A program made the translations under genes and the position numbers. A DNA stretch of 64,000 nt, taken from Pseudomonadota bacterium (GTDB lineage Bacteria > Pseudomonadota > Alphaproteobacteria > UBA2136 > JAPKEQ01). This document shows, piece after piece, positions 8,770 through 45,106 of the stretch. The notes under the pieces are model-generated. The model did no database searches and was not told where the DNA came from. It saw only the letters and a list, made by a program, of their open reading frames with translations. Location: positions 78,077-142,076 of the forward strand of contig JAYZXF010000017.1 in NCBI GenBank assembly GCA_036141575.1, written 5' to 3'. The number at the start of each line of letters is the position of its first letter. The stretch's first letter is position 1.

Positions 8770-9582
8770 ATGAGACACACAGTATGGATTGCGTCGTTGG
8801 CGCTTTTGTGTGCAGTAAATGCGCAAGCTTCAGAAGGAATTGCAAGGCAAATTCAGTCTCTTAAAACAGCAATGGATGGGTTTGCAGCAACTGCAAGAGC
8901 GCAAATTGCGTCCAATACAGCGAGTATTACTGAAAACGTAAGAATTATTGACTCTTTTGAGACCTGTGCTGAAAGCGGGATGATGTATGCCCCTGATGAT
9001 GTGACAGCGAATGCAGATGGCTGTAAGCGCGTCACCTCAACACAAGCGCTCAATGAAATTGATGTGTCAAGCCAGCTTGTGGCAACAGGCCGGTGGCTAC
9101 ACCCTTATAACTTTAGTGAGCATTCATCAAATGGGTCTCCATCAAAACGTGGCCGTTCTTATGCGCAGATTTATCGTATTAATGATCCTGATAATTATAA
9201 CAACTACCTGATTTCTGGTAATCTTTTTGGTGGTGGTAGTCGTTCTCATGATGAGGGTCAGTTCAGTTGTTGGAATGCTAATACTTATGTAAAGATTGGT
9301 AGTGGTTGGGTTTCTACAAACGGTGATTCTATTAAAATTGAACAGCTTGCCAATGTGTCTAAAACGCGTGTGGCAGGCCATGTTTATAATGGCACATTCC
9401 AAAACCAAATTGCGATTGTAAAGCGTACATCTCATAGCTGTTATAATAACGGAGGGGATTTAAATATGGGAATGAAGGTTAATTACATTACGTATCACAA
9501 TGGTATGAATGCACGTGCATCTTATCATGATAGTGACTCGCGAGCTTCAACACTGCGTGTGACAAACATTATTGGTTTTTAA
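8770..9582 (+). CDS. secreted protein, member A of the 'EG-ARQ' family
   Basis: Signal peptide, then 'SEGIARQIQSLKTAMDGF', then the two-Cys loop 'FETCAESGMMYAPDD...DGC'. Paralog of 12161-13015. Confidence 0.7.
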   Translation: MRHTVWIASLALLCAVNAQASEGIARQIQSLKTAMDGFAATARAQIASNTASITENVRIIDSFETCAESGMMYAPDDVTANADGCKRVTSTQALNEIDVSSQLVATGRWLHPYNFSEHSSNGSPSKRGRSYAQIYRINDPDNYNNYLISGNLFGGGSRSHDEGQFSCWNANTYVKIGSGWVSTNGDSIKIEQLANVSKTRVAGHVYNGTFQNQIAIVKRTSHSCYNNGGDLNMGMKVNYITYHNGMNARASYHDSDSRASTLRVTNIIGF

Positions 9583-9633
9583 ATTAATGGAAGTTCCTAT
9601 AAATAAGCATGAAATGGGAGGTTTATAGATTTC

Positions 9634-10206
9634 ATGAGTAAAGTATTTAAAGGGAGTGCAGCTGTTGGCGCTTTAATGGCGGCGACAAGTGCTGCTGCAC
9701 ATGACCACGACTTTCCGAACTTGAATTACGATGCCAATGCACCTGTGCCTGATGGCATGAGCGAGGTGTGCTCTCCAAGTGATCTGGAATACTTGCAGTG
9801 GCAAGCCAATGATTTTGTGGTTGATAATCAAGTTCAGTTTCAGCCTAAAGATGATGCGGCACAGGGCTATATGCAAGCTTATGCCGAGCTCCATGAAGGG
9901 GACAATGCATTTGAGGCTTATAAAGGTTATAGTGATCGTGCTTTTGAGCACTATAAAGAGTTTGATAATGTTGCTAAGCAGGTTGAGCGCGGCATGGTCA
10001 GCTATGATGAAGTAGATCAACAGATTCTTGGTCGTATTAATGAGCTTGGTCACCTTGAGCAGTTTTATATTAATTCTATTCAGGCTGAGAAGATTGCAGC
10101 AAACTTTGAAATGCAGTACGGCGAGGGGTCTTTTGCCCGTTACGCTGGTATGCAGGTTGAAGTGGAGCTTGGAGAGCTCAACTGCGATATTGAAGCTGAG
10201 CGCTAA
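9634..10206 (+). CDS. hypothetical secreted protein
   Basis: N-terminal signal-like 'AAVGALMAATSAAA'. 190 aa. Confidence 0.5.
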   Translation: MSKVFKGSAAVGALMAATSAAAHDHDFPNLNYDANAPVPDGMSEVCSPSDLEYLQWQANDFVVDNQVQFQPKDDAAQGYMQAYAELHEGDNAFEAYKGYSDRAFEHYKEFDNVAKQVERGMVSYDEVDQQILGRINELGHLEQFYINSIQAEKIAANFEMQYGEGSFARYAGMQVEVELGELNCDIEAER

Positions 10207-10217
10207 AGGATTTATCT

Positions 10218-10255
10218 AAAAAAAAGCCACCCCGAAGGGTGGCTTTCTTTATTTA
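10218..10255. terminator. bidirectional rho-independent terminator 'aaaaaaagccaccccgaagggtggctttcttt'
   Basis: 10-bp stem with a GAAG loop, an A-run on one side and a T-run on the other. Lies between convergent genes. Confidence 0.75.
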
Positions 10256-10275
10256 CGTCGATTTGCTTTGGCGTT

Positions 10276-10851
10276 TTAGTCGTTGTTGCCGAATGGGTTG
10301 ACGCCGCCATCTTCACCAGTCTCGAAAGTCTGGCTGGTTGCGGCGCTGACCACCGGAGCACAGACGCTGCCGGGCTCTTTTTGCTTCGGGTCGACCTTGG
10401 CCGGGAAGTTCATCAGGCCGTAGACCAGGTTGCCGGGGAATTTCTCCAGCGAGTTGGTGTAGGCGACGCACTTGTCAATCAGCAGTTTCTGCGCATTGGC
10501 GAAGGTGGTCCGGCCGATTTCGATCTGATCCTGAATGGTTTTGTACAGGGTCATGTCGACTTCGGGGTTGTCTTCGGTCAGGGCCAGCAGCAGGGCGCTG
10601 GCACCGCCATCACCGTAGCGGTTCTGGAGTGCACCAGAAATCACTTCTGCGACCGCGTCCTTGTAGGCATCGGCCACGCCAGCGGATTCGGTCACCGACT
10701 GAGCGAACGCGTTGTATTTGATTTTGTTTTCATCGTAGGTGCCCATGATGCCATTCTCATGGCTGATGCCGGTGTTGTACGTGGAAATGGCCACGCCACC
10801 TGCCAGAGCCAGAGGGACTGCGACGATTGCTGCGATAATAAGACCTTTCAT
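10276..10851 (-). CDS. hypothetical exported protein encoded by a markedly GC-rich gene (ORF extends to 10920; likely start is 'MKGLIIAAIVAVPLALAGG')
   Basis: N-terminal hydrophobic signal or TM segment. GC is visibly about 58-60% against about 46% for the window. Confidence 0.5.
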   Translation of the reverse strand: MKGLIIAAIVAVPLALAGGVAISTYNTGISHENGIMGTYDENKIKYNAFAQSVTESAGVADAYKDAVAEVISGALQNRYGDGGASALLLALTEDNPEVDMTLYKTIQDQIEIGRTTFANAQKLLIDKCVAYTNSLEKFPGNLVYGLMNFPAKVDPKQKEPGSVCAPVVSAATSQTFETGEDGGVNPFGNND

Positions 10852-10942
10852 GATGATTCTCCATGATGTGAAAGGTTGAGAAGGAAGGGTGAAAGCTTGG
10901 CCGGAAAACCGCCCAAGCAAGTATTATATTTCCTGTGTGCTC

Positions 10943-11998
10943 CTAGAGGAAACGCACGTCGTTGCGATGGAAGTAACGGGTTAGACCGAGACTTGCGCCC
11001 ATCCCAACAAGGAAAAGCATGACCAGAGCCCATGTTGGTGGGTTGATCTGGGATTTGAGGTAGGCAAACTGTTTCATCTGTGGGCGTACAAAGTGTGCGT
11101 CCACCTCTTCGGAGATGGCGTGCACAATTGCATGCGGGTCAGAAATAGTGCCAATGTTTTGAAGTTCATCACGCAGATACACTGCCATTTCTTCGTTGCC
11201 GTATCCGCCAGCCCAAGTGAGCACATGGGCCCAATTGATAGTGTCGGTTGCGTCAACACTCAGAATAACCACCACATCATTCTTGTTGAGACCATCCCAT
11301 GCGGCTTCAACTTTGAAGACATATTCACGGGATTTCTCTGTGGTGATGATCAGGTTCACGTTGGCCTGTTTACTTGGGCCAAGGTGAATCAGTTCCTGAT
11401 TCAGCAGATCTTGCCAGTGGTCAGCATCTTTCAAGCTGAAGCCTGAAGTCAGCACCCGGTGTGCACGGTAGTAGTCGAACACGCGTGGGTACTCAGGCAC
11501 GTCGGCCAGATGCTCATAGTCCAGCATTTGCGTTTTGTAGAGGCTGCCGTTGGCGGCCTGTACGTAGTTATCATAGGTGTGCTCAGTTGCAGCAGGTTCA
11601 CCAATAACCACTTCCGTGAAACGGGGTGGCTCTTTGGTTCCCTGACGGTTGATACGCCGAATGTTGAAGTCGCCAACATTGGTGTAAACACGCCAGTCAT
11701 AGTCGTGAGAGTGCTCATAGCATGTTTGGCAGGTCTGTTTACCGTCTTTGTCGGTGACACAATTGCATTGGTAGCTGTGTTCGCAGGAAACGCGAACACG
11801 CTTTTTGTCTGCAATTGAGCCGTTCCAAATTTCGGTATCAGCCATCATGCCTTTTTCGGTCAGCTTGTAGCCGCCAAAAACCAGCGCTGTCACGAGAACG
11901 AGCTGCATGAGGATTTCTTGCCAGTTCAGGTCATACTTCAATGCTTTTGCAATGAGAGGTGTGAGAAGGGGCAAGAGAAGAAGCCATGCAAGATACAT
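10943..11998 (-). CDS. hypothetical membrane protein with a Cys-rich extracytoplasmic segment
   Basis: N-terminal and C-terminal hydrophobic helices. Cys-rich stretch 'SCEHSYQCNCVTDKDGKQTCQTCYEH'. Confidence 0.55.
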   Translation of the reverse strand: MYLAWLLLLPLLTPLIAKALKYDLNWQEILMQLVLVTALVFGGYKLTEKGMMADTEIWNGSIADKKRVRVSCEHSYQCNCVTDKDGKQTCQTCYEHSHDYDWRVYTNVGDFNIRRINRQGTKEPPRFTEVVIGEPAATEHTYDNYVQAANGSLYKTQMLDYEHLADVPEYPRVFDYYRAHRVLTSGFSLKDADHWQDLLNQELIHLGPSKQANVNLIITTEKSREYVFKVEAAWDGLNKNDVVVILSVDATDTINWAHVLTWAGGYGNEEMAVYLRDELQNIGTISDPHAIVHAISEEVDAHFVRPQMKQFAYLKSQINPPTWALVMLFLVGMGASLGLTRYFHRNDVRFL

Positions 11999-12160
11999 GT
12001 GTTTTCTCCTTAAAATGTACGAAAGATTACAGTAGTGATGAAATTGTGATCATCCCTTTAATGAAATTCAAGGTTTTGGGTGTTTTTTTTAGGAGATATG
12101 AGCTTGTGTGTTAACCTATAAGAGAAAGCAGGGTTATAAAAAAGAGGGGTCCCTTACAAA

Positions 12161-13015
12161 GTGAGGCATATGCTTAAAGTATCAGCATTAACTGCTGTGT
12201 GTGTGATTGGAATCGTGAATTATGTGCAAGCGAGTGAAGGAATTGCTCGTCAAGTACAAGCCTTAAAGTCCTCTATGGATAGTTTTGCTGCGACTGCTCG
12301 TGCTCAGCTTGCTGCTCAGGCGGTAAGCATTACAGAGAATGTACGTATGATTGACGCTTTTAAAACCTGTGCAGATAAAAACATGCTGTATACGCCTGAA
12401 AATCAGGCGGCAGATGTGGATGGCTGTTCTGCGATGTCTGGCTCTGGGGAAGTAAATGAAATTGATATGGCAACAGAGGTTGTGCCAACAAACCAATATT
12501 TTAATGTGGAACATGGCAGGGAGCAAACTGGAGGCGGTGGAGTAACTCGTGGCTCTCCTGCACGTATCTATCAGATTAATGACTCTGGAAATTATCAAAC
12601 ATATCAAGTTGTCGGTAATATCCGAGGCTGGGGTTGGCAATGGGATGATGAAGATCATGCTTATGACCATTGTTATGCTTATCAGCCTTATGTGAAAATT
12701 GGCGGGAGATGGCATGTCTCTGACTCTGATACTGTGACAATCCGTACTGTTGCAAACCAAAATAAAACCATTCTAAATGGCCGTATGGTGAATGGAAGTT
12801 TTGATAAAAGAATAGCTGTTGCTAAAGGAACAGCTTTCAGATGTGGTCGTCGTGGGGATACAAATGCTTTATATCAGATTTTTAATGATATGCGTAAGAG
12901 CCATGTGACTTGGTCTGATGCTTTAGCTTCTGGTCAAAGGGCTTGTTCTCATCATGACCCTCTTAATTGCAGAAATAGTGCATCGCTTGGTATACACTAT
13001 ATTGTTGGCTATTAA
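12161..13015 (+). CDS. secreted protein, member B of the 'EG-ARQ' family
   Basis: Signal peptide, then 'SEGIARQVQALKSSMDSF', then 'FKTCADKNMLYTPEN...DGC'. Shares 'IY(R/Q)IND..NY' and 'YVKIG' blocks with member A. Confidence 0.7.
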   Translation: MRHMLKVSALTAVCVIGIVNYVQASEGIARQVQALKSSMDSFAATARAQLAAQAVSITENVRMIDAFKTCADKNMLYTPENQAADVDGCSAMSGSGEVNEIDMATEVVPTNQYFNVEHGREQTGGGGVTRGSPARIYQINDSGNYQTYQVVGNIRGWGWQWDDEDHAYDHCYAYQPYVKIGGRWHVSDSDTVTIRTVANQNKTILNGRMVNGSFDKRIAVAKGTAFRCGRRGDTNALYQIFNDMRKSHVTWSDALASGQRACSHHDPLNCRNSASLGIHYIVGY

Positions 13016-13114
13016 GTTAAAAATTAAAAAAGAACTACCCAATTTTAAAAAACGCCTTTAGGTTAGAGATATCTTAAATCTTCTTTAATGTTTCCTAACT
13101 GACGAGGCGTTATC

Positions 13115-14146
13115 ATGCGCTATACAGTTCCTGCTGGGCGCAATGAAGCGCCCTATGCCCTATGGCATGAAAAAAGCATACAGGCGCGAAGCTGGTATTT
13201 AGCTTTAGGTATGATGTATCCCGTGATTATATGTATTGCCCTTGGGCTGCATGGCGGGGTAGGAACCTTTATGAGTGCCATTTTCTACGCAGTCTTGCTT
13301 TTTGGTGTTTCTCGCTTTCAAGCCTATAAAACGGTGCGCTCAGCACCTGAAGAATTTGCGCGTAAGGCTATTCCTGAAACCTCACCTCAATATCGTCAGG
13401 CTCTCCTTATGATTGAGGAGCTTTGCCAGCGTGCAGGTGTGGATTGGAGGCCTCAGCTTATTGTGTTTGAAAGTGAAGGCTTTGACGGTTTTGCAAGCCA
13501 TCCCCCTGGACGGGACCCCTATATTATCCTGAGTACAGGTGCTTTTCTTTATGGGAAGAGAAGTGTACGTGCTGTGATCGCTCATGAGCTGTCTCATATG
13601 CTGCACGGGGATATGACCCTTGTTGAGAGGGCAACCATCCTGCATATGGTGACAATGGCTATGCTTGCTCTTATTTTGTCTGTTCCAATGGCTATGGCTG
13701 GTGGAGAGTCTGCTGACAGTGTTTTCTTTCTTGTGTTTTTATTGGGGTTTACCTTCATCTATTTACGTGGATTGAAGATTGCGCTCAATACGCACTCACG
13801 CTACCGAGAGTATTTGGCTGATGGTGGTGCTGCCGCTTTAATTGGCTGGGAAAACCGTATGGATATGGCGGTTGCACTGCACTGGACTTTTGTTGCCTTT
13901 AAAGAGCTTCTGAAAAAGAAGGTGAGGCAAGGGCAGCTCTACAAAGATTTCCGTCACCCTCAAACTGGGGCACCCCCTAGAGAAGGATGGCTTGAAGACA
14001 TGCAACAAAAAGCGCTGGATGCGATTGATGAAATGGAGGAAACCTCTTCCATTATGAATACGCACCCAACCAATAAAGAGCGCTATGCTGCGCTCGATAT
14101 TACCGAAGACGAGCTGAAGCAAGCTCTTGAGGATCATGCGCTATAA
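13115..14146 (+). CDS. M48-family zinc metalloprotease (HtpX-like), membrane-associated
   Basis: HExxH motif 'VIAHELSHMLHGD' plus multiple TM segments. Confidence 0.75.
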   Translation: MRYTVPAGRNEAPYALWHEKSIQARSWYLALGMMYPVIICIALGLHGGVGTFMSAIFYAVLLFGVSRFQAYKTVRSAPEEFARKAIPETSPQYRQALLMIEELCQRAGVDWRPQLIVFESEGFDGFASHPPGRDPYIILSTGAFLYGKRSVRAVIAHELSHMLHGDMTLVERATILHMVTMAMLALILSVPMAMAGGESADSVFFLVFLLGFTFIYLRGLKIALNTHSRYREYLADGGAAALIGWENRMDMAVALHWTFVAFKELLKKKVRQGQLYKDFRHPQTGAPPREGWLEDMQQKALDAIDEMEETSSIMNTHPTNKERYAALDITEDELKQALEDHAL

Positions 14147-14149
14147 AAA

Positions 14150-14185
14150 ATCGAGAAGCCCCCTGTGTTGGGGGCTTTTTATTTG
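14150..14185 (+). terminator. rho-independent terminator 'gaagcccccTGTGTTgggggctttttatttg'
   Basis: G/C stem followed by a T-run after the M48 gene. Confidence 0.7.
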
Positions 14186-14326
14186 CGCGCTGCTGAAGTT
14201 TTTTTTAAATAGTTTTTTTCATTGAAAGGTATAGAGCGGCTCTGTAAAGTTGACGCATTCTATAGAAAATATGTCTTCCGTTTTCTTATCCTTGATCTGA
14301 GGTGTTTCTATTTTTGTGAGGTCATT

Positions 14327-14827
14327 ATGCTTAAGACCTGTCTGCGCGGCTTTTTGCTGCTCTCTTTTCTTGTTCTGTCTGCTTGTGCCGTCGCTATTCC
14401 TGAAGAAGACTGGTATATCACTCTTGCCAAACGCAATACACAAAACGGTGTTGTTACCATTACTGAAGATGATGGTGGGCTGGTTTATCCGCGTATTCAT
14501 TACATTGAAAATGTGATTGAGGCCCGTAACCAAAGTGTACGTATTATTGCACCTGAATGCATTTCGGCTTGTACGATGTATCTTGGGGTCAGCAATGTGT
14601 GCACTGCGCCTTATACTCGCTTTATGTTCCATGGCCCTTGGGATAGTTCAGTAGCTAACTATACTGAAACGCCTGCATTTCAGCATACGTCACGTGCCAT
14701 TGCACGTTACTATCCAGCGCCTATCCGTAGAGCCTTTATGAAAAGTTATCGTCATTTGGGACCCTATGAGTTTCATACAATTACGGGCGAAGAGCTTATT
14801 GCCGCAGGGCATATAAGAGCCTGCTAG
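14327..14827 (+). CDS. putative lipoprotein (the ORF track starts upstream at 14222)
   Basis: 'MLKTCLRGFLLLSFLVLSAC' with a lipobox-like LSAC. Terminator hairpin at 14848-14872. Confidence 0.5.
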   Translation: MLKTCLRGFLLLSFLVLSACAVAIPEEDWYITLAKRNTQNGVVTITEDDGGLVYPRIHYIENVIEARNQSVRIIAPECISACTMYLGVSNVCTAPYTRFMFHGPWDSSVANYTETPAFQHTSRAIARYYPAPIRRAFMKSYRHLGPYEFHTITGEELIAAGHIRAC

Positions 14828-14886
14828 ATGAATCGAACACAACAAAGCCTCCCAAATGGGAGGCTTTGCTTTATCGATGAAAAGAG

Positions 14887-15465
14887 TTACATGCGGAAGC
14901 GGGTTGCTTCTTTCACTGTGCCGTAGACCCATTGGAACCACATGATGCCAGCCAGAGCCGGCAGAACCCAGTCCATTTCATTGGTGATAGCGTCAGCATG
15001 AACATGGCCAGATGCGGTGGTCAGCCAAAAGGCAAACAAGCCTGCCATCAGGTAGAGCTCATTGGGCTCCATGGCACGCACGGCGGTAATTGCACTGGTA
15101 AGCGCAATGGCGCCAATCCAGATCATAGCAAAGATACCAGCGTTTCCGAAGGTGTTCAGCATGTAGCCAGTACCAAAGTAACCTGCAACACTGATCGCGA
15201 TGGTCAGCAAAAAGCGCAGGCCCAGATTCTCCAGACGGGTAATCTTGGCAATCAGGCGGGCAGCACTGCCAACAACCCAGTCCCAGCCGATCAGAAAGAT
15301 GGTTGGAACCAGCTCGCCAGATGTTTTGTGGCTGGTGGTTGGGCGTTCTTCATCCAGTGTGGTATTGCCGACCAAACGGTCAAATAGGATGAACGCGCCG
15401 ATGATCAGGCCCACAAGAAGGAGCACAAAAAGGAAGGGGTTTGAGAAAATCACAACAGACCTCAT
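14887..15465 (-). CDS. hypothetical polytopic membrane protein
   Basis: Five or six hydrophobic helices. Confidence 0.5.
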   Translation of the reverse strand: MRSVVIFSNPFLFVLLLVGLIIGAFILFDRLVGNTTLDEERPTTSHKTSGELVPTIFLIGWDWVVGSAARLIAKITRLENLGLRFLLTIAISVAGYFGTGYMLNTFGNAGIFAMIWIGAIALTSAITAVRAMEPNELYLMAGLFAFWLTTASGHVHADAITNEMDWVLPALAGIMWFQWVYGTVKEATRFRM

Positions 15466-15569
15466 AGGTTAGGGAAGCGTTAATTCAGATGATAGATACT
15501 TTTTGTATACGTATTATGTATTTAAATGTCAAGGGGAGGTGAGAAAACAAATAAAATCAGAAAAATCTA

Positions 15570-15598
15570 TTGACTTTTTATCCTACTTCACCTAAATA
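15570..15598 (+). promoter_or_regulatory. candidate sigma70 promoter for rplM-rpsI (TTGACT, 17 nt, TAAATA)
   Basis: -35 'ttgact' at 15570-15575 and -10 'taaata' at 15593-15598, about 105 nt upstream of rplM. Confidence 0.4.
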
Positions 15599-15704
15599 CA
15601 CAGAACATGTGCGAAAACCCTAGCTTTTTAGGGGTATAAGAAATTATATAAGTGGCACAAAAAATATTTGTTAAAACGACCATTATAAAAGAGTAAAGAC
15701 CGTC

Positions 15705-16169: not shown

Positions 16170-16184
16170 GCGGGGAATAAGTAA

Positions 16185-16610: not shown

Positions 16611-16633
16611 TCTTTCGAGACCGACACATTCAA

Positions 16634-17700: not shown

Positions 17701-17703
17701 CGT

Positions 17704-25788: not shown

Positions 25789-26373
25789 TTAGAACTCTTC
25801 AGGCATGTCATCTGTGAGTGAGTCCATCATCGGCTCATTCATTGGTTCCATCATCGGCTCCATCATTGAGTCCATGTGAGTATCCATAGAAACTTTATCA
25901 GGTGTAAGACCTGTCATTTCCATCATGCTGTCTTCCATCATTTTAAGCTCTTTACTGATTTCTTCCATTTGCTCGCTTACGTCTTCGCCGCGTGCTTCAG
26001 CTTCTTCAAGCTCTTTTGCTTTTATAGCAAGTTCATCAAGAACCTTCATCATGTCGTCAACAATGCTCAGGCTGCTGTTCAGTTCATCTAGGCTACCTTG
26101 TAGGTTATCTAACTGTGGGCCACCAATGGCGTCTAGGCTAATTGGAGCAGGGATTTCATTGTTCATGTAAACGCTTTGTTTTGCTTCAAGCTGGCCAAGA
26201 GATTTTGAGAAAATATCAAGGTTAGACTCAAGGCGGGTAATTTCTTGCTGAGCAATTTCAATTTTTACTTTCTGGCTCATCATTGTGAAGAGCAGGTAAG
26301 CGACCGCAATTGAAAGTGCCAGAATAATCACAGATACAATATTAATTTGGCGCTTTTCTGATTCGTAAGACAT
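25789..26373 (-). CDS. membrane-anchored coiled-coil protein with a C-terminal (M)(M)EP repeat tract
   Basis: N-terminal TM 'IVSVIILALSIAVAYLLFTMM', a long heptad region, and C-terminal 'MMEPMMEPMNEPMMDSL'. Confidence 0.5.
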   Translation of the reverse strand: MSYESEKRQINIVSVIILALSIAVAYLLFTMMSQKVKIEIAQQEITRLESNLDIFSKSLGQLEAKQSVYMNNEIPAPISLDAIGGPQLDNLQGSLDELNSSLSIVDDMMKVLDELAIKAKELEEAEARGEDVSEQMEEISKELKMMEDSMMEMTGLTPDKVSMDTHMDSMMEPMMEPMNEPMMDSLTDDMPEEF

Positions 26374-27608: not shown

Positions 27609-27923
27609 CTATTGTAGTGGTATGCATGAGGATCCATTAAAAAGCATGCCATTATTGGCACATGAGTGAGAATGGCTCTGATTACTCGAGATGCGATCAG
27701 CATCAGCTCTCAAACTTGAGAGTTCTGTATCTAAGACATCAAGCTGACCTGCCAGCACGGTCTTCCAGCTTTTTAGAGCAATACTGAGCGTATTCACTTG
27801 TCTTGAAAGGTTTTCTGTTTCTGCTTTTTGTGCAAGGGCGTCTGCAGGGAATGCCAGCAGTGCCGGTGCTGTAAGTAGAATAAAGGCTTTCTTGAGTTTC
27901 ATATCATGCACTCTTTTTAGCAT
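27609..27923 (-). CDS. secreted protein, member C of the 'EG-ARQ' family (short form)
   Basis: Signal peptide, 'LSRQVNTLSIALKSW', then the C-terminal loop 'HSCANNGMLFNGSSC'. Confidence 0.55.
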   Translation of the reverse strand: MLKRVHDMKLKKAFILLTAPALLAFPADALAQKAETENLSRQVNTLSIALKSWKTVLAGQLDVLDTELSSLRADADRISSNQSHSHSCANNGMLFNGSSCIPLQ

Positions 27924-28579
27924 TGCGTGCCGCTTGTGCAGCTTGCAGTTGGGTTTGAGATATTATTTGTATTGGCGTAGTTTAGATAATTGACTGTTTC
28001 TTCCACAGACATAGCACCTGTTGTGGCTTCATTAGAGCCTGCAATATGTTGGCGCACTTCTGCAGCGGCTTGCGCTGCTGTCATGCCTGAACCTTGAAGT
28101 CTGTCCATCTCACCTTGCCAAAAATGTGCTCCAGCTTGGTCTGGTGCGCGGCCGAGCTCATCGCTATAAATTGCGCAAAGCTCAGGTGATGCTGTGCATG
28201 TGTTTTGTGTTGGAGTTGGTGCTGAGGCAACAGTTGGTGCTGAAGCTGATGGGGCAGGCGCTGCGCTGGCTGTTGGTAGCCCTATGCAGTGCGAACCATT
28301 ATAAAGCATATGGCTGTTGGCACAGTCATATGCATTACTTTGTTGCTGAAGCAATCTATCTGCCTCTGTTCTCAATCCCGAAATACTATTGCTGAGTGCT
28401 GTAAGCTCACTGTTTACATTTTGACGAAAGCCGTCAATGGTATTTCTAAGTGAGCCAACTTGCCTAGAAACACCCTCAACAGGCGTGAGCTGTGCTTGAG
28501 ATTCTAGCGTTGTAAGTAGTAGTGTTGGTGTAATAGCAAGTAATGCTTTTCTAAGTAATGCTTTTCTGTTTTTTGACAT
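27917..28579 (-). CDS. secreted protein, member D of the 'EG-ARQ' family
   Basis: Signal peptide, 'VEGVSRQVGSLRNTIDGF', then 'YDCANSHMLYNGSHC', followed by an Ala/Pro/Ser-rich linker. Confidence 0.6.
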   Translation of the reverse strand: MSKNRKALLRKALLAITPTLLLTTLESQAQLTPVEGVSRQVGSLRNTIDGFRQNVNSELTALSNSISGLRTEADRLLQQQSNAYDCANSHMLYNGSHCIGLPTASAAPAPSASAPTVASAPTPTQNTCTASPELCAIYSDELGRAPDQAGAHFWQGEMDRLQGSGMTAAQAAAEVRQHIAGSNEATTGAMSVEETVNYLNYANTNNISNPTASCTSGTQC

Positions 28580-38041: not shown

Positions 38042-38188
38042 GGCCCGTTTGTCCTTTTCCTCGGTTCCATAAGTAAATAAGAAGGAAAACTGCCTATTTC
38101 AAGGGCAAAGCAATAAAAACTGCACTTGAAAAAATGGCGGATAACTCCCATAATATAAGTTAATAAATAACTCAAGAGGGATGAGAAA

Positions 38189-38656
38189 TTGGCTCATATG
38201 GATAAGGGCGCTATCGACAGACGCGGACTAGATGAAAGTACAGTGAACAAGCTCACTGAGGCTTACCGTATGGGTTGGCTCCATAATGTCCTGTCTCGTA
38301 TTACTCCTCTTACAATGCGTCGTCGTGATGATTACCTTAACATGGCAGACCTGTTTATTGATACACCTGAAGCAGCTCACAAGCTGTTAGATCGCTTTGA
38401 TGCAGACCTAGAAATGTTCTGCTCAGTGGCAGAAATTCAAGTAACAGAGCACATGACAAGCAAAACGGTTTCAGATGAGCTGAAAGCGCACGTTGAACTC
38501 TACAACGACATTGCTGGTGTTCTTTACGGTAAGTTTAAAGGTGACGTTGAAAAGCGTGATCCTATTCAAAGTCTCGCAATGACGCCGATTACAACGGATA
38601 GCACAAACCCGTTTATTGCAGAATTCATGAAAGAGAAATTCCCGAAAAAAAATTAA
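38189..38656 (+). CDS. hypothetical protein
   Basis: 155-aa ORF with an RBS-like 'aagaggg' upstream. Confidence 0.45.
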   Translation: MAHMDKGAIDRRGLDESTVNKLTEAYRMGWLHNVLSRITPLTMRRRDDYLNMADLFIDTPEAAHKLLDRFDADLEMFCSVAEIQVTEHMTSKTVSDELKAHVELYNDIAGVLYGKFKGDVEKRDPIQSLAMTPITTDSTNPFIAEFMKEKFPKKN

Positions 38657-38727
38657 ACGGCGCCTTTAAGCGAAGTTTTATGGTATCTGTCTCGTGTTGT
38701 GATAATAAACTCTGCGCTCAGATTTTT

Positions 38728-38890
38728 CTTTGCTTGCTTTCCATCTTTTATTTTTCAAACATAAAGTCCAATGCAAGCTCTTGGAAAGCGTGAAGCATTC
38801 AACAGCATGGGCATTTTCAAGATAACCTTCACGGGGGCTATCATTTTACAAATTTTACATTTGAAAAATGATAGGGTGAGAGTGAAGAAG
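38728..38890. repeat. intergenic repeat element copy (module A forward segment plus an inverted hairpin at 38827-38887)
   Basis: 'ttgcttgctttccatcttttatttttcaaacataaa' matches 26830-26870. The hairpin 'cttcacgggggctatcattttacaaattttacatttgaaaaatgatagggtgagagtgaag' is the reverse-orientation equivalent of 58160-58220. Confidence 0.7.
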
Positions 38891-38895
38891 AATAA

Positions 38896-40164
38896 CTATC
38901 TAAAATATCTACCCGCATGCAGTGTGAGGCCAACACCGACACTCCCAAACGCATCACCTGTTACCACATGTGCATGTGGAAAAGGCTCAAGCAGGGCTGC
39001 ACGAATCATTGGGAGTTTTGTTGAGCCACCAGTGAGGAATACGCTTGAAATTTGTTCGGCTGTCACGCCTGCATCATCAAGAGTTTCCTGTACTGTACGC
39101 TGCAATGAGTCACACGAATCAGACAAGCTCGGGCGAAGGTGATTGTTGTTTGTTACAGGAACACTTAGGCCTTTTTCAACAAAGTTCATATCAAGAATAT
39201 TCTCATCAGATGCAGACAGGGCAATCTTGGTTTCTTCAACCTTCATGGCCAGCGTGTGGCCGCTTTCATCCTCAAGAACGTTCAAATAGCGTTCAAGCTT
39301 GTCAGGGTCTAATGCATGGTTGAGTGTGTCTTCAACAAGGCGTACTGTCTTTTGGTTATACAGCGTGTGAATTTTTGGCCATGTCGCCAGCGTAAAGAAC
39401 AGCCATGGCGCAATTTCAATATCTTTATCAGAAAACGGTGCACGCATAAGGCCTTTATGACCAAGCTCAGGCATTGCACACATCAGGCTGAGAGCTTTAT
39501 CAAAGTCTGTACCACCAATATGTACACCGTGGTTAGAAAGAATGTCTTCTGAGCGGTTCTCTTTGTGTTTATGCTCTGGTGACAGGCGAATCACTGTAAA
39601 GTCAGACGTACCACCGCCAAGGTCAATAATCAGAGCGAGTTCTTCTTTCTTGAGCGTATCTTCGTAAGTATAAGCAGCGGCCAGAGGCTCAGGCAGGAAG
39701 GTTACATCTTTAAAGCCTGTGCTTTTTACAATCTCTTCCAGCATGTTTTGCGCCTCAGCGTCAGCCTTAGCGTCCCCATCAATAAAGAAGACCGGTCGAC
39801 CAATAGTTGCACGCGTGAGCTCTTCACCTGCGGTGGTGTCTACATGCTTTTTAATGTCGGCAATAAAGCTCCCAAGAATATCTGTAAAGGCAACTTGGCG
39901 GTTTCCAATACGTGTGCTTTCACGGGCAAGGTCTGTCCCTAGAATACTTTTAAGAGCGCGCATAAAGCGTCCATCATCCCCGCGTGTGTAGGCTTTTACA
40001 GCTGATCGACCAAAGCTTCTTGTGCTGTCATCATCAATAAAAATGGCACTCGGAATAGTGTTTTCATCGCCTTCCAAGTTACAAAGTGTTGCTGTGCCGC
40101 CTGTGAATAGGCCTGCTGTTGAATTGGATGTGCCGAAATCAATACCGCAAACTGGGGACGTCAT
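38896..40164 (-). CDS. Hsp70-family ATPase (YegD-like: actin-like ATPase domain only)
   Basis: 'CGIDFGTSNSTAGL', 'IIDLGGGTSDFTVI' and 'VFLTGGSTKLP' are the Hsp70 phosphate-1, phosphate-2 and adenosine motifs. 422 aa with no substrate-binding domain. Confidence 0.8.
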   Translation of the reverse strand: MTSPVCGIDFGTSNSTAGLFTGGTATLCNLEGDENTIPSAIFIDDDSTRSFGRSAVKAYTRGDDGRFMRALKSILGTDLARESTRIGNRQVAFTDILGSFIADIKKHVDTTAGEELTRATIGRPVFFIDGDAKADAEAQNMLEEIVKSTGFKDVTFLPEPLAAAYTYEDTLKKEELALIIDLGGGTSDFTVIRLSPEHKHKENRSEDILSNHGVHIGGTDFDKALSLMCAMPELGHKGLMRAPFSDKDIEIAPWLFFTLATWPKIHTLYNQKTVRLVEDTLNHALDPDKLERYLNVLEDESGHTLAMKVEETKIALSASDENILDMNFVEKGLSVPVTNNNHLRPSLSDSCDSLQRTVQETLDDAGVTAEQISSVFLTGGSTKLPMIRAALLEPFPHAHVVTGDAFGSVGVGLTLHAGRYFR

Positions 40165-40527
40165 TTGATAAGCCTTTCTTTGGAAAGCATGGAAACTATC
40201 AAAGTTTCAGGCGTTTGTCATGAGAAAGTTCTTAAAAACGGTGAAGACTTCTTCTTTGAAGTGCCCAAGCACCCTGCCAACAAAATGTTTGCAGATCGCT
40301 TGCAGCACCTTGGCTTTGAGCGTTCCCCTCTGATTGCTCATGACGATTGTGATCGGTTCTATATGCCTGAAGGCACAGACTTGGCGCAAGTCACGCTGGA
40401 ATATCAGGAATACTTCAAAGCTGGCGAAGCGCCGACACCAGCCATTGTTCCACTGGGGCACTTGTCGCCCACGGTACAGGATAAGTCTCGTGGTATGGAT
40501 GTCGAAGACTGGCCGCCTGAGAATTGA
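40165..40527 (+). CDS. hypothetical protein
   Basis: 120-aa ORF divergent from the Hsp70-like gene. Terminator at 40549-40578. Confidence 0.4.
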   Translation: MISLSLESMETIKVSGVCHEKVLKNGEDFFFEVPKHPANKMFADRLQHLGFERSPLIAHDDCDRFYMPEGTDLAQVTLEYQEYFKAGEAPTPAIVPLGHLSPTVQDKSRGMDVEDWPPEN

Positions 40528-40624
40528 TTTGAAAACGAAAATAAAGGCACCCCGTCAGAAACGGGGTGTCTTTATTTTTGTGGGGGACTCATAAACCTTT
40601 AAGGTTGTAAGGGAGGTTCCTGTA

Positions 40625-41143
40625 ATGGGAGAAACTTTAGGCTATATATCACTTATCCTTTATGTAGTCGCATTATTATTTCATAAGCCACGCCATAGCT
40701 TTATTTGCTTTATTATCGCGAATCTCTTCTTTATTGCACAATGTATTGTTTCAGAAATGTATGTTGCAGTTATGGGACCTATTGGGCTAACAGCTCTTAC
40801 TGTCTTTATTTTAAATGTTAAGAAGAAAAATTGGACTGCTTATGTAAAAGGTTATGCAACTTTTACTGTATGTGTTGGGGTGTATTTTGCGTCTAGTGTA
40901 AGTGAGTATATTGTTGTAAGTGCTATGTGTATAGATGCTCTATCTCGCCTAGGTAGAGACCATTTTTACCTATTTAGAACCTTGTCTTCTTTAGGAAATA
41001 TACTATGGTTTACATCTTTTTACATAGAGGGAGTAACTTCTATTATGTTGATGAGCGCTTTGATGGTTTCTTTAAATGTGATTTATATGGTCAGACATGC
41101 GTTGAGAGATGAGGTGCTCTTTAAGCAAAAGGTAAATGAATAA
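40625..41143 (+). CDS. hypothetical membrane protein
   Basis: Several hydrophobic helices and AT-rich codon usage. Confidence 0.4.
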   Translation: MGETLGYISLILYVVALLFHKPRHSFICFIIANLFFIAQCIVSEMYVAVMGPIGLTALTVFILNVKKKNWTAYVKGYATFTVCVGVYFASSVSEYIVVSAMCIDALSRLGRDHFYLFRTLSSLGNILWFTSFYIEGVTSIMLMSALMVSLNVIYMVRHALRDEVLFKQKVNE

Positions 41144-41268
41144 AAGCATGAGATGTTTTTGCACCTCTATTCAATTTGAAAACATTTATTTTAGAGTGAG
41201 ATACCTGTAAGTTTTATATTTATAGTATACTACATAAATAGATGTAAACGTTTATGAGGTAATTTTTT

Positions 41269-42108
41269 ATGAGGTTATTTGCAATTGTATGTATGTGTTG
41301 CGCACTGTTTGTCAGTGTGGCAGCCGTTTCTCAAACACGTGCAGGTGAAGGACTTTCACGCCAACTTCAATCTGTAAAATCAATGCTTGAGAGTTTCCGT
41401 AGCCATATAGATGGTGAAATCGCTCGTGTGGATAGTGAAATTAATACAGTGGATAGCAGAGTAGATGCTGCAAATACTAGAATGGATACCATGGACGGTC
41501 GTATGGATGGTATAGACACTCAGATTGGTGGCCTAAACTCGAGTATTAATTCACACGATAACCGTATTACAGCCCTAGAAAATGGGGAAACAGGTGTGCA
41601 AGTTTACAGAAACTGTGCACAACGTAATGTGACATGGGGCAGTGGAAATTGCCGAGGTACGCAGGGGCCCATTCCTCATGGCACAAGTATAACGGTTAGA
41701 GACACCGTTCAAGGTGATATTTGTACAAATAGATATCAATATGTTGGCTATGCTGTGTATAGTTGTAATGATGGTGTGGTAACGCGTAACGGGCAAGCTT
41801 GTCAGCGAACAGATTTCTACAATGAAAATCTATGTGAATCTGGCAGTGGTGGCGATAGCTATGCAAACTGTCAAGGTACAACAAGGACATGGTCAGAAAC
41901 GTATAATGGTCTAACTTCAACCTGTTCTGGATCAATTGGTTCTGTGCCACATGGTACAACCGCTACAGCAACAGACCCTAGAACTGGTTGTGACCGTCGA
42001 GACTTCACAGGTGGATCATCGACTTGGCTATGTGATAATGGTACTCTCAGAAGACAAGGTACTGCAACATGTAGAACCTGGGGCAGCTGGGGTAGCGACT
42101 GTCGATAA
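41269..42108 (+). CDS. secreted protein, member E of the 'EG-ARQ' family, with two Cys-rich ~65-aa modules
   Basis: Signal peptide, 'GEGLSRQLQSVKSMLESF', a coiled coil, then modules 'C..RNVTWGSGNC.G..G...HG....D..C......G.....C.NG.......C' twice. Confidence 0.7.
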   Translation: MRLFAIVCMCCALFVSVAAVSQTRAGEGLSRQLQSVKSMLESFRSHIDGEIARVDSEINTVDSRVDAANTRMDTMDGRMDGIDTQIGGLNSSINSHDNRITALENGETGVQVYRNCAQRNVTWGSGNCRGTQGPIPHGTSITVRDTVQGDICTNRYQYVGYAVYSCNDGVVTRNGQACQRTDFYNENLCESGSGGDSYANCQGTTRTWSETYNGLTSTCSGSIGSVPHGTTATATDPRTGCDRRDFTGGSSTWLCDNGTLRRQGTATCRTWGSWGSDCR

Positions 42109-42288
42109 TTGAATAAATGAAAGCAGAAAAGGAGGGCACATGCCCTCCTTTTTGCAACAGGGGATATATTTATTTTTCTTGAAGTATCAATGTATTGCAA
42201 TTTTTACTCACCTATTTGTCAGGGATATGTTTATTTAAAGTTGTGGTTATATATATAAATAAAATGTGATTTATAAAAGGGGTTTAAA

Positions 42289-43374
42289 ATGAGAGCTTTT
42301 CCGATAGTAATGATTTTATCCTGTTTAGTTTTACTAACAGGCGTAGCTGGTGCGCAGAGCACGCGCTCTGGTGAAGGTATTGCAAGGCAGTTAATGTCTG
42401 TTAAAAGTATGATTGAAAATTTTGCTGATAACATCCGCACACGTGTGCAGACCGTTGAAAATGAAATGGATGCGGTAGAAACACGTATGGATACAGTGGA
42501 AGCTGATGTTGCAAGCGTACTTGCAACCGTTGCAACACATGAAACACGGTTGAGCTCGCATGATTCATCTCTATCTGGCCATGGTCGCCGTATTCGAGCA
42601 CTCGAAGAGCGCGAGCCAACAGGTGGTGGAGGTAGTACAGCACCAACACCAAGTGCGTGTAACGGTAGAAACATGTCATGGGGAGGGGGATGTAGTGCTT
42701 ATGTACAATCTCTACCTGATGGGGGTGCTGTCGTTCTGAGAGATCAAGTTGCTGGTGATGTATGTACAAATAGACAGCAGTATGTTGGTCAAGTTCGTGT
42801 GGCTTGTAACAATGGTCAAATTTCTACAAAGAACGCCTCTTGTGAGCTGAGAAACGTTTATAACGCAACTCAGTGTAGTGGTGGCACAACACCAACACCG
42901 AAGAAGAGATGTGCAGCAAAAGATGTGAGCTGGAAGAACAATGCTGGTACAGTCACATGTCGTGGTAGAATTGTTGCAGCTGATCATGATTCAACACGTC
43001 GTGTAACATTTGATAACAACAATACAAAACCTGGTGGAAAACGTATTACTGGTGCAGCAAACTTTATTTGTGACAACGGTGTGTTCAAACGTACATCTAA
43101 GAACTGTAAAGAAACTGTTAACCCTGAGCCTCCTAAGCCTTGTGCAGGCAAGTCTGTGAGTTGGACTAGTAATGGTGTTACATGTCGAGGAACTGTTTCG
43201 AATACGCCACATGGTTTAACTTCAAGTGTAACAGACCCTAACCGAACACGAGAGTGTGAGAACATTATAGATACAACAGGTAGCGCAAGCTTCAGGTGTA
43301 CAAATGGATCGTTCAAGAAGGTCTCTGGCTCTTGCAGGCAGGTACGGAGTCGTCGAACAGGTGACTGTCGATAA
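42289..43374 (+). CDS. secreted protein, member F of the 'EG-ARQ' family, with three Cys-rich modules
   Basis: Signal peptide, 'GEGIARQLMSVKSMIENF', then three modules ('CNGRNMSWGGGC...', 'CAAKDVSWKNNAGTVTC...', 'CAGKSVSWTSNGVTC...'). Confidence 0.7.
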   Translation: MRAFPIVMILSCLVLLTGVAGAQSTRSGEGIARQLMSVKSMIENFADNIRTRVQTVENEMDAVETRMDTVEADVASVLATVATHETRLSSHDSSLSGHGRRIRALEEREPTGGGGSTAPTPSACNGRNMSWGGGCSAYVQSLPDGGAVVLRDQVAGDVCTNRQQYVGQVRVACNNGQISTKNASCELRNVYNATQCSGGTTPTPKKRCAAKDVSWKNNAGTVTCRGRIVAADHDSTRRVTFDNNNTKPGGKRITGAANFICDNGVFKRTSKNCKETVNPEPPKPCAGKSVSWTSNGVTCRGTVSNTPHGLTSSVTDPNRTRECENIIDTTGSASFRCTNGSFKKVSGSCRQVRSRRTGDCR

Positions 43375-43384
43375 GGACTCTATA

Positions 43385-43416
43385 AAAGAAAGCGGCGCAA
43401 GAGCGCCGCTTTTTTG
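43385..43416. terminator. bidirectional terminator 'aaagcggcgcaagagcgccgctttttt'
   Basis: Perfect 8-bp stem between convergent family genes. Confidence 0.75.
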
Positions 43417-43434
43417 TAACTCGAACGGCTCGCT

Positions 43435-43992
43435 TTATTTACATGGATCTGATGAGTAAGAACAAACTGGATTAGAAATAACAAAGTCACCATTACGACA
43501 AGTTACTGTAGCAGAGCCTGAAATATGGTTACCACAACGTGGGCGTGGGTGGGTAACTGTTGCAGTATCACCTTCATTGGCACCCCATGCAGTACTTGTA
43601 CATGTTGGATTACCATAGGCACCAGTCCATTGCACAGGTCTGCTTGTACAGCCAGACACTGTTCCAGAGCTGCCTGTCATATCATCGTGGGAAACGCAGC
43701 CTCGTCCATCTGCATCTGGGTGTGTTGGCCAGTGAATGCTTGGATCACCAGATGTATTGATACATGCTGTTCGTTGGTTCTCTCGTGTTTCAAGATTTGT
43801 TACACTGTTTTCAACGTTTGTCATGCGGGGTCTCATATCATTTGCAAATGCTTCCATCATATTTTTAAGAGATGTAAGCTGTCTGCTGATACCTTCACTT
43901 GTACGTGTCTGTGCATCAGAGTTAGAAATAACGATGAGGGATGCTGTTGTGAGAATTGCCGTAAAAATGAGGCAAGATTTTTTCAAATTCAT
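43435..43992 (-). CDS. secreted protein, member G of the 'EG-ARQ' family
   Basis: Signal peptide, 'SEGISRQLTSLKNMMEAF', 'TACINTSGDPSIHWPTHPDADGRGC', then one Cys-rich module. Confidence 0.65.
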   Translation of the reverse strand: MNLKKSCLIFTAILTTASLIVISNSDAQTRTSEGISRQLTSLKNMMEAFANDMRPRMTNVENSVTNLETRENQRTACINTSGDPSIHWPTHPDADGRGCVSHDDMTGSSGTVSGCTSRPVQWTGAYGNPTCTSTAWGANEGDTATVTHPRPRCGNHISGSATVTCRNGDFVISNPVCSYSSDPCK

Positions 43993-44104
43993 AATCTTTA
44001 TCCTTTACTTTTACCGGTTGATGCTACGCCTGTGTATGGGGGTGGTCAAATTAAAAAATGAAAAAGACCTAGAAAAATCTAGGCCTTATCACGTTTAAGT
44101 TGTT

Positions 44105-45106
44105 TTATTGAGGTTCACCATTATGCTCTTTAGAGAGTGGGTATTTTCCTTTTTTGTCTGGAATAGAGCCGTGGACAAGAATACCGTTTGCATAGTAAGT
44201 GTGGTCACCATCTAGCATAAGGTTGTAGAGGCGGCGGTCTTCTTCTTCCTGTGGGACAATCATGATGGATTCAATAAGCTGACGCTTGCCTTGTGCCATA
44301 ATGAGTGTTTGGCCAATTTCAAGCTGACCAATGTTACCAGAAAGTTGGTCGTAAGCTTCTTTCTCAGCCATATCTGGGTTAAGGGCCTTCCAGCCGTCTG
44401 TTGTCATAAGAGGGTGGTTATCTGTTGTAAAGGCAGTTTCACCGTTAATCTCAATAAGGTGCTGGTTTTTACCTTTGCGCAGAAGAGGGCGGTCAAGGTC
44501 TAGCACGGTGTTAATTGCACCGTCACGGCCCATCAGCTTATCACCAATTTTAACTTTATGAATTTCAAGGTCACTACCATCCGCCATAAGTACTTTTGTT
44601 TCAGCCGTAAAGCATGAGCCGCGGCAAACTGCTGCACAATTTTCCATACTATTAGGCGTTAGGTTTGTATTACAGCGGCAGGCACATCTCCACCCCACCC
44701 AAACTTGGTCGCTTGGGCATGTAGGAGGCGTGTAGGTGCCACCACCTGTTGGGCCTTCAATATCTGTATGTGTTACACAGTTATTGCTATCAGCATCTGG
44801 ATGGTTTGGCCAATACAGGCTTGTTGTTGATCTGTTATGGCAGAACGTTTGCCTATTAATAACTGTCTGGAGGTCTGAAATATCCGTTTGTGCTGTTGAG
44901 AGCTGTGTTTCTAGAGTGCTAATTCTAGAGCTCATGCCAGTAGACATGCTTTCCATCATGTTTTTAAGGGAGAGAACTTGCCTTGAAAGTGCTTCACCCG
45001 CACTTGTTTGTGCCCATACATTGGCAGCTAAAATGATTGTGCAAAGAGAGAGAAAGATTGCAATGGATTTAAGTATTTTACCCTTGAAAAACATAGTGGC
45101 CACCAT
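44105..45106 (-). CDS. secreted protein, member H of the 'EG-ARQ' family, with a C-terminal Hint (Hedgehog/intein-like, BIL-type) domain
   Basis: Signal peptide, 'GEALSRQVLSLKNMMESM', 'QTFCHNRSTTSLYWPNHPDADSNNC'. Hint blocks 'CFTAETKVLMADGS', 'TTDNHPLMT' and 'YNLMLDGDHTYYANGILVHGS'. Confidence 0.7.
   Translation of the reverse strand: MVATMFFKGKILKSIAIFLSLCTIILAANVWAQTSAGEALSRQVLSLKNMMESMSTGMSSRISTLETQLSTAQTDISDLQTVINRQTFCHNRSTTSLYWPNHPDADSNNCVTHTDIEGPTGGGTYTPPTCPSDQVWVGWRCACRCNTNLTPNSMENCAAVCRGSCFTAETKVLMADGSDLEIHKVKIGDKLMGRDGAINTVLDLDRPLLRKGKNQHLIEINGETAFTTDNHPLMTTDGWKALNPDMAEKEAYDQLSGNIGQLEIGQTLIMAQGKRQLIESIMIVPQEEEDRRLYNLMLDGDHTYYANGILVHGSIPDKKGKYPLSKEHNGEPQ

Follow-up and report, generated by a model that had tools for sequence, protein, structure and literature searches.

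A 64,000-nucleotide stretch of alphaproteobacterial chromosome (assembly GCA_036141575.1, contig JAYZXF010000017.1; the whole stretch is called the window below) carries eight paralogous genes whose products share one N-terminal module, placed just after a leader peptide, and differ in what follows it. The genes belong to a previously undescribed, lineage-restricted protein family, which is traced only to a narrow clade of uncultivated marine Alphaproteobacteria and has at least 10-11 copies per genome. The reading favoured here, held at a probability of roughly one half, is that the family consists of Sec-exported, disulfide-bonded and probably trimeric stalk-and-head proteins, in which one shared oligomerisation/docking module carries varied binding domains.

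On this model, cleavage of the leader would often leave an N-terminal Gln, followed after a few residues by a helix opening with E-G-h-S-R-Q (h, hydrophobic). The helix would continue as a parallel coiled coil, most likely a trimer, up to a neck loop closed by a disulfide, and past the neck any of many unrelated small Cys-rich domains would be attached. Head, coil and neck would together form the shared oligomerisation module, and possibly a docking or sorting module too, because the invariant residues lie off the predicted core. The tails would supply diversified adhesin- or lectin-type binding, either within the periplasm or at the cell surface or beyond it. Diversity would come from domain swapping, from changes in the copy number of a 65-residue repeat (1-4), from stalks that grow or shrink by whole heptads and from gene turnover among strains. 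Where a C-terminal Hint domain is present, it would probably cleave itself off at Cys165. Membership of the family, the heptad register with its stepwise stalk lengths, the parity of the cysteines, the diversity of the tails, purifying selection and differences between strains are observed; export, disulfide bonds, the trimer, docking, binding and Hint autoprocessing are predicted.

The constant module of the eight genes

A sequence-only reading of the stretch had proposed the eight genes, and all of them exist and translate as it described, each with a signal peptide and with the motif just past the cleavage site. At their N-terminus, the proteins (104-361 residues) have a basic n-region, then 13-20 hydrophobic residues in a row and an AXA-type site, and the motif lies 0-8 residues further on. 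A six-frame search with the expression E-x-[ILV]-[SA]-R-Q-[ILVM]-x-x-[ILVM] gives exactly eight matches in 64 kb, each just past a hydrophobic leader; a degenerate DNA pattern for the motif matches six of the eight genes, with 0.00 matches expected from 100 shuffles. A hidden Markov model (HMM) of the head, built from 42 family members, recovers the eight genes with E-values from 6e-21 to 8e-15 and detects no other copy, however divergent, in the window. The eight genes are as follows.

Family gene 1, 8770..9582, plus strand: 270 residues; signal peptide 1-20; motif at residue 22 (nucleotides (nt) 8833-8862); 44-residue coil, long neck loop CAESGMMYAPDDVTANADGC, then a 185-residue beta-rich orphan tail with C-terminus -IIGF.
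Family gene 2, 12161..13015, plus strand: 284 residues from GTG; motif at nt 12236-12265.
Family gene 3, 27609..27923, minus strand: 104 residues; motif at nt 27786-27815; head-only, with signal peptide, motif, 51-residue coil and short neck loop CANNGMLFNGSSC, then the stop codon and no tail.
Family gene 4, 27917..28579, minus strand: 220 residues; motif at nt 28448-28477; 51-residue coil, short neck loop CANSHMLYNGSHC, Ala/Pro/Ser linker and DUF4214-like tail.
Family gene 5, 41269..42108, plus strand: 279 residues; motif at nt 41347-41376; 89-residue coil with repeated R-hxxh-[DE], then two 65-residue Cys-rich repeats (nt 41611-41802 and 41866-42072).
Family gene 6, 42289..43374, plus strand: 361 residues; motif at nt 42373-42402; 95-residue coil, then three 65-residue Cys-rich repeats (nt 42655-42846, 42910-43107 and 43141-43335).
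Family gene 7, 43435..43992, minus strand: 185 residues; motif at nt 43867-43896; 44-residue coil with RMTNVE, long neck loop CINTSGDPSIHWPTHPDADGRGC, then one Cys-rich repeat (nt 43453-43656).
Family gene 8, 44105..45106, minus strand: 333 residues; motif at nt 44966-44995; 51-residue coil with RISTLE, long neck loop, short Cys-rich segment, Hint domain and 20-residue tail.

Three start codons may differ from those listed. In gene 2, a paralogue of gene 1 (39% identity overall, 63% in the head), the ATG at 12170, which is preceded by GAGG and gives 281 residues, is likely to be preferred over the GTG. Gene 3 probably starts at M8 (ATG 27902), giving 97 residues as in the NCBI record; the overlap with gene 4 that had first been described then disappears and is probably an artefact of taking the longest open reading frame (ORF). 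Gene 8 may start at 45094, which would give 329 residues.

After the signal peptide, the consensus of the eight ORFs reads E-G-[ILV]-[SA]-R-Q-[VIL]-x-[AS]-L-[KR]..[ML][ED]S[FYW]. Only E, R and Q are strictly invariant among them and the remainder is a conserved pattern, so that the description of a 'nearly invariant' motif of 18-20 residues was overstated. When the 42 members are anchored on the motif without gaps, the column counts are 39/42 for E0, 34/42 for G1, 41/42 for R4, 42/42 for Q5 and 39/42 for L9, and the position before the motif (-1) is S, T or G. The head is made of 45 ungapped residues with hydrophobic residues at positions 2, 6, 9, 13, 16, 20, 24, 27, 31, 34, 38 and 41, a 3-4 heptad a/d spacing interrupted once by a 4-4 stutter. 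The invariant E, G, R and Q map to heptad positions b, c, f and g, outside the predicted core.

Export is predicted for 37 of the 42 members, including all eight of the window: their n-region is basic, at least 12 hydrophobic residues stand in a row, and an AXA-like site comes 0-8 residues ahead of the motif. The AXA-type site that closes the leader is followed by Q, S or T. Three other readings of the motif were tried and rejected: a prepilin-like one (the hydrophobic segment precedes the motif), a lipoprotein one (there is no lipobox) and N-terminal peptidoglycan attachment (there is no Ala-Asp N-terminus).

The length of the stalk is quantised. Counted from E0, the first Cys lies 44 (n = 17), 51 (n = 7), 58 (n = 2), 65 (n = 1), 72 (n = 2) or 37 (n = 1) residues away in 30 of 41 members, and seven more members have distances of 34, 41, 55 or 62. 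The first six lengths fall into one residue class modulo 7 and the other four into another, so the stalk gains or loses whole heptads and the tip and the neck keep a fixed helical phase. Within the coil, R23-h24-x-x-h27-E28 stands in g-a-d-e register; 21 of the 42 members have one or more canonical copies, in most cases at position 23, and long-stalk members have up to four. In this register, R-hxxhE is the parallel-trimer motif of Kammerer, Steinmetz and colleagues (PMC3653964). The in-register motif, together with the many beta-branched residues at a positions, makes a trimer the best guess. Of the trimeric coiled coil raised as a question at the outset, the heptad register is borne out and the trimer finds support only at the level of the motif.

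The neck is of two main kinds. The long loop, C-x-[ND]-R-x(3-5)-[IL]-Y-[AW]-P-x-H-P-[DE]-A-[DN]-x-x-G-C, is found in genes 1, 2, 7 and 8, and the short one, C-A-x-x-x-M-L-[FY]-x-G-[ST]-x-C, in genes 3 and 4 (C..ML[FY]NGSxC). Genes 5 and 6 have no neck loop and their coil runs directly into the 65-residue repeat domain. The 'short two-cysteine loop' that the sequence-only reading ascribed to the whole family is not a single feature; in genes 5 and 6, what had been seen would be the first disulfide of the repeat. The Cys count is even in 39 of the 42 mature proteins, the exceptions being the two Hint members (8 + 1 catalytic Cys) and P0045, which looks frameshifted relative to P0050. This parity fits full disulfide pairing in an oxidising compartment, with the nucleophile of the Hint domain left free.

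Head, coil and neck behave as an autonomous module: gene 3, which has no tail, is conserved and shows few substitutions. The tandem of gene 4 followed by gene 3 is kept in four assemblies (L036-L039). With stalks of equal length (51) and the short neck loop in common, the two proteins could assemble into mixed oligomers.

Structure models are available for two of the proteins. The AlphaFold2 model of gene 1 has a helix at residues 21-68 followed by strands, with low confidence (predicted local distance difference test score, pLDDT, 55.5), and is too poor to serve as a query in a fold search. The model of gene 7 shows a single helix (28-79), a loop and a beta domain (115-185) with a pLDDT of ∼88.

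Variable tails and the Hint domain

Clustering of the regions past the neck by blastp separates the tails into at least 15 unrelated classes. Together with the head HMM, this upholds the proposal of a paralogous family, exported by prediction, with a constant head and diversified Cys-containing tails. The classes are distributed as follows.

65-residue Cys-rich repeat/Hint: 11 members; window genes 5, 6, 7 and 8.
Unnamed class: 7 members; no window gene.
DUF4214-like: 5 members; window gene 4.
Second unnamed class: 3 members; no window gene.
Pair: 2 members; window genes 1 and 2.
Singletons: 10; no window gene.

The repeat unit of the largest class has the pattern C-x6-W-x(2-9)-C-x7-PHG-x-T-x3-TD-x(5-7)-C-x(6-8)-GSA-x3-C-x-NG-x(8-10)-C, of which gene 7 has one copy, gene 5 two, gene 6 three and P0039 four. 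A Pfam scan of the 42 members recognises DUF4214 in four, Hint in two and VOMI in one. The tail of gene 4 scores 16.2 bits against DUF4214 (PF13946), under the cut-off of 23.2; it clusters by blastp with four other members, and the best of the four members that match DUF4214 does so at E = 3.7e-15. The tail shared by genes 1 and 2 is an orphan, for which only two other homologue clusters were found in a word-indexed search, a method that appears insensitive for such short profiles. Overall, the tails look like small extracellular binding modules more than enzymes.

Gene 8 is the only one of the eight with a real known domain above cut-off. Its Hint/bacterial-intein-like (BIL) domain spans residues 165-312 (nt 44171-44614) and scores 50.2 bits against PF05203 (cut-off 32.1) and 23.6 against TIGR01443 (cut-off 15.6); PT-HINT reaches 26.0 bits, just under the Pfam cut-off of 27.7, and is also listed for a relative on L006, a locus from another species. 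The domain starts at Cys165 (GS/CFTAETKVLMADGS, GS/CFTAET), has TDNH as block B and ends in VHG/S, and the mature protein has nine Cys, that is eight plus one. The 20-residue segment after the domain, which ends at residue 312 of 333, is conserved in its relative P0060. At the C-terminus of the domain, Gly replaces the Asn of the His-Asn plus nucleophile that is needed for splicing, and with this terminal Asn missing, intein-type splicing is not expected. BIL domains sit in variable secreted bacterial proteins and N-terminal cleavage has been described for them (PMC7765530); by likeness to these, N-terminal cleavage is the likely reaction predicted for gene 8.

Distribution, selection and genomic setting

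An exhaustive hmmsearch with the 64-residue head alignment against 1.84 billion representative proteins returned 213 hits at E <= 0.001. About 40 of these are short proteins (78-459 residues) matched in a single stretch, which starts at profile position 1-4 and at protein residue 17-52, right after the leader; these ∼40 clusters show the full layout of the window genes. Most of the 213 are long generic coiled-coil proteins, matched in multiple stretches at profile positions ∼17-60 only. The top score (E = 1.7e-46) belongs to P0033, a giant repetitive coiled coil of 4364 residues, which reaches it through 32 stretches; P0033 was rejected as a family member, as only the coil part of the profile is matched.

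Members are traced to the metagenome-assembled genome (MAG) of the window, a sister genome, several assemblies with JAYKC… accessions, Logan runs and one JGI sample. Among GTDB species representatives, 'Alphaproteobacteria bacterium ANT-120' has three members on one 24-kb contig, and 'uncultured Magnetococcales bacterium' carries a family member as well. The count of eight copies in 64 kb holds exactly for the window, and at least two more members lie outside it in the same MAG (VX730_07115 and VX730_05805). In the sister genome, an additional member lies next to rpsO, ∼750 kb away. On the Logan contig L003 (364-9333), two tandem members (212 and 225 residues) follow directly downstream of a secreted fibre-like protein of 2536 residues, which has repeated Cys-containing modules and a C-terminal Peptidase_S74 intramolecular-chaperone domain.

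At the DNA level, the degenerate motif pattern matches 13 stretches of GTDB genomes; by translation and the head HMM, three of them are true, on two MAG contigs, and ten are chance matches. All ten matches on JGI metagenome contigs are due to chance, and none of the 41 stretches matched in a related-locus scan of GTDB genomes was confirmed. No relatives were found on viral contigs (IMG/VR), in INPHARED phage records, on plasmids (tblastn) or in BFVD. Word-indexed protein searches gave one hit with the head alignment, two with gene 1 and none with the 65-residue repeat profile, the searches being apparently insensitive for these short profiles.

The head is not covered by any Pfam, NCBIfam, PHROG or PDB family, in line with the initial impression that no established family could be recognised, and PDB sequence searches with two family profiles gave nothing below E = 0.05. 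The coil matches only generic coiled-coil families, below threshold (DUF1664, Baculo_PEP_C, DUF7310, XhlA, tail needle). Neither the eight proteins nor the 42 members have a Pfam hit to YadA_anchor or a related trimeric-autotransporter membrane anchor.

Selection was assessed against the sister genome GCA_035092365.1 (contig 1,262,185 bp). Family proteins are 90-99.5% identical to their counterparts, with ratios of non-synonymous to synonymous substitution rates (dN/dS) of 0.02-0.30; neighbouring proteins are 90-100% identical (most at least 94%) with a median dN/dS of 0.06. The median over five of the family genes is 0.15. Gene by gene, against the sister or other assemblies, dN/dS is 0.09 for gene 1, 0.3 for gene 3 (only four substitutions), 0.2 for gene 4, 0.16 for gene 5, 0.29 for gene 6 and 0.02 for gene 7. 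These low values indicate that the family genes are functional, somewhat less constrained than their neighbours and under no gene-wide positive selection.

The repertoire varies between strains. Gene 1 and its sister counterpart are 90% identical with a dS of 0.60, against a median of ∼0.10 for non-family genes and 0.02 and 0.15 for the immediate neighbours, which suggests a divergent allele from recombination or the long maintenance of divergent alleles. Gene 2 has no orthologue in the sister genome: the ∼900-bp segment that carries it (window 11999-13114) is missing there, and the flanking genes, for a 351-residue protein and an M48 peptidase, lie ∼190 bp apart. The positional counterpart of the four-gene cluster in L006 has a different set of members, including a truncated head-only fragment. 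This is a 111-codon open frame on the plus strand (L006 1475-1807), which matches head positions 1-28 only and lies between two intact members; it is probably a truncated or decaying family member. Just upstream of the cluster in the window, a gene on the plus strand (40625-41143) encodes a multi-pass membrane protein of 172 residues. Its best match in the sister-genome loci, where a 188-residue gene sits at the same position, is 55% identical, against at least 98% for most nearby genes; this gene bordering the cluster is hypervariable or has been replaced.

The window is ordinary chromosome (locus tags VX730_07895 to _08135, on a contig of 297,750 bp). Its housekeeping genes encode ribosomal proteins L13 and S9, a class I aldolase, PntAB, triose-phosphate isomerase, SecG, a PpiD-like protein and a DEAD helicase, and the family genes are scattered among them, with four clustered at 41.2-45.1 kb. 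Scans of the window for tRNAs and Rfam families gave no matches. Downstream, the family genes are followed by a gene for a 190-residue secreted protein, by an M48 peptidase gene, by another family member or by convergent genes, and no small immunity-like gene recurs at this position.

Other genes of the window stand out in their own right. A two-partner secretion pair on the plus strand (50849-57291) consists of a ShlB/FhaC-type transporter (700 residues) and then a 1424-residue exoprotein, which has an N-terminal TPS domain and no other recognised domain. On the minus strand, a 582-residue ORF (5637-7715) fuses HTH_3 (residues 31-84) to a RuBisCO large-chain catalytic domain (234-536) and is followed by a gene for the RuBisCO small subunit. 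It is unusual for a RuBisCO large subunit to be fused to a helix-turn-helix. The sister genome encodes both proteins with 100% identity; the fusion gene has a dS of 0.12 (46 synonymous differences) and the small-subunit gene no differences. Finally, a 194-residue ORF on the minus strand (25789-26373) has an N-terminal membrane anchor, a coiled coil and a methionine-rich acidic tail (MMEPMMEPMNEPMMD).

Competing readings and known systems

The favoured reading makes the family stalk-and-head display proteins, adhesin- or lectin-like by their likeness to collectin-type architecture. Several points weigh against it. No outer-membrane translocation route was identified for the family, and the proteins may be simply periplasmic; nor is there a conserved neighbouring partner gene across six genomic contexts. 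As for the trimer, R-hxxhE is missing in half of the members and is found in some dimers too (PMC3653964), and the core residues are mixed (I, L, V or M at a, mostly L at d) and specify no oligomeric state. The binding function of the tails is likewise a prediction, and searches of PDB and BFVD gave no structural neighbour for the 65-residue repeat, of which the beta domain modelled in gene 7 is an example. The invariant E, G, R and Q could also be a coiled-coil trigger or a helix cap, a mundane role, rather than a docking surface.

A bolder and tentative reading, less probable than the favoured one, puts the emphasis on the tip. The sequence pyroGlu?-x4-6-E-G-h-S-R-Q would be a new sorting or docking signal that sends at least ten exported proteins per cell to one receptor or to one outer-membrane export or anchoring machine. 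Since the head and the heptad register are common to all members, paralogues may also co-assemble as mixed trimers (for example genes 4 and 3), resulting in a combinatorial surface display. The position of the invariant residues, off the predicted core and at the very start of the mature protein, is compatible with such a signal and equally with the trigger or cap.

It is unlikely, more so than the tip signal, that the proteins are periplasmic structural or spacer proteins like Braun's lipoprotein, with trimeric coils of set length that bridge or measure the envelope and tails that bind peptidoglycan or the outer membrane. The periplasm would be the default destination of Sec export when no outer-membrane route is identified, the stalk changes by whole heptads, and there are weak Lpp-like coil hits (PF04728, E = 0.23). 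Alphaproteobacteria are not known to have Lpp. Lpp and the SadB-type periplasmic trimeric coiled coils are, like the family, small, exported and dominated by a parallel coiled coil whose length matters. However, the family has no lipobox Cys (no L-x-x-C) and no C-terminal Lys/Arg pattern or Lys for attachment to peptidoglycan. Its C-terminal domains vary, Hint and VOMI-type tails are typical of extracellular proteins, and at least ten paralogues per genome with unrelated tails and strain-variable content fit a core envelope structure poorly.

Polymorphic toxins or bacteriocin-like effectors are an alternative of nearly the same low standing. On this account the head would serve trafficking or receptor binding, the tails would be toxic and Hint would release a pre-toxin. 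Much of the architecture of polymorphic toxin systems (CdiA/Rhs/MafB, PT-HINT) is indeed present: a constant N-terminal module with swappable C-terminal domains, strain-variable repertoires, including the divergent allele of gene 1, clustered paralogues and Hint in some members, with the PT-HINT match of gene 8 falling just short of threshold. A two-partner secretion system also lies 6 kb away. Nevertheless, no tail matches a toxin family, either in Pfam and NCBIfam for the eight proteins or in Pfam for the 42 members, and the family is without a dedicated secretion partner or a recurrent small downstream gene to encode immunity. The tails are small, Cys-rich and repeat-like in proteins of ∼100-460 residues, and one member has no tail at all. 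Hint is essentially C-terminal, and with merely 20 residues past it there is no toxin to release; dN/dS is low. The resemblance to polymorphic families that the sequence-only reading noted thus holds for architecture and strain-level gene content, and not in the toxin/immunity sense.

An origin as domesticated phage receptor-binding proteins or tail fibres is very improbable. The analogy with tail needle gp26 and tail fibres is one of layout, in which a shaft of trimeric coiled coil links a conserved attachment module at the N-terminus to a variable tip or knob at the C-terminus; weak coil hits to tail-needle and adhesin PHROGs and to Phage_tail_NK point the same way, as does the Peptidase_S74 fibre protein that precedes two members in L003. 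These profile matches, in PHROG and Pfam alike, are confined to the generic coil at E >= 5e-5. Unlike phage proteins, family members have Sec signal peptides, they lie among housekeeping genes in a window in which no phage genes were found, and they have no matches in IMG/VR, INPHARED or BFVD.

That the family is an artefact, a signal-peptide or low-complexity coiled-coil resemblance of unrelated ORFs, has next to no probability: most of the 213 profile hits are indeed generic multi-stretch coiled coils, but the head is a specific 45-residue ungapped module, which true members match in one stretch from profile position 1-4 right after the leader, with E, R and Q conserved off the core, zero chance expectation for the DNA pattern, a conserved neck loop, even Cys counts and purifying selection.

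If the favoured reading is true, the family is a compact bacterial scaffold made of a leader, a 45-residue trimerisation head, an adjustable stalk and a disulfide neck, into which at least 15 unrelated small domains have been plugged. It would add a protein family to those known, together with at least one novel disulfide-rich domain of 65 residues, and open a way into the cell-surface or periplasmic biology of a marine lineage for which metagenomes are the only source. In the heptad-quantised stalk, nature offers a clean case of coiled-coil length tuning. The interest is tempered by the uncultivated state of the organism and by the frequency of lineage-specific secreted families in metagenomic data.

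Among known systems, BIL and Hedgehog-type Hint proteins share with gene 8 and P0060 the N-terminal catalytic Cys, the block-B TxxH and a variable secreted host protein (PMC7765530). They differ in the N-terminal cargo, which in gene 8 is the coiled-coil family module; in the absence of the C-terminal Asn, N-terminal cleavage or a Hedgehog-like transfer would be expected of its Hint domain, not splicing.

A further parallel is with trimeric neck-plus-head lectins (the collectins SP-D and MBL, tetranectin, C1q/TNF-like proteins). The present family is bacterial, unlike these proteins, its tails fall into many unrelated classes, and its trimeric state and ligand binding are predicted; none of the eight proteins has a Pfam hit to a C-type lectin, collagen or C1q domain at E <= 1. 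What the two have in common is a signal peptide, a probably trimerising parallel stalk, a junction stabilised by disulfides and, at the C-terminus, a globular domain that is displayed in several copies.

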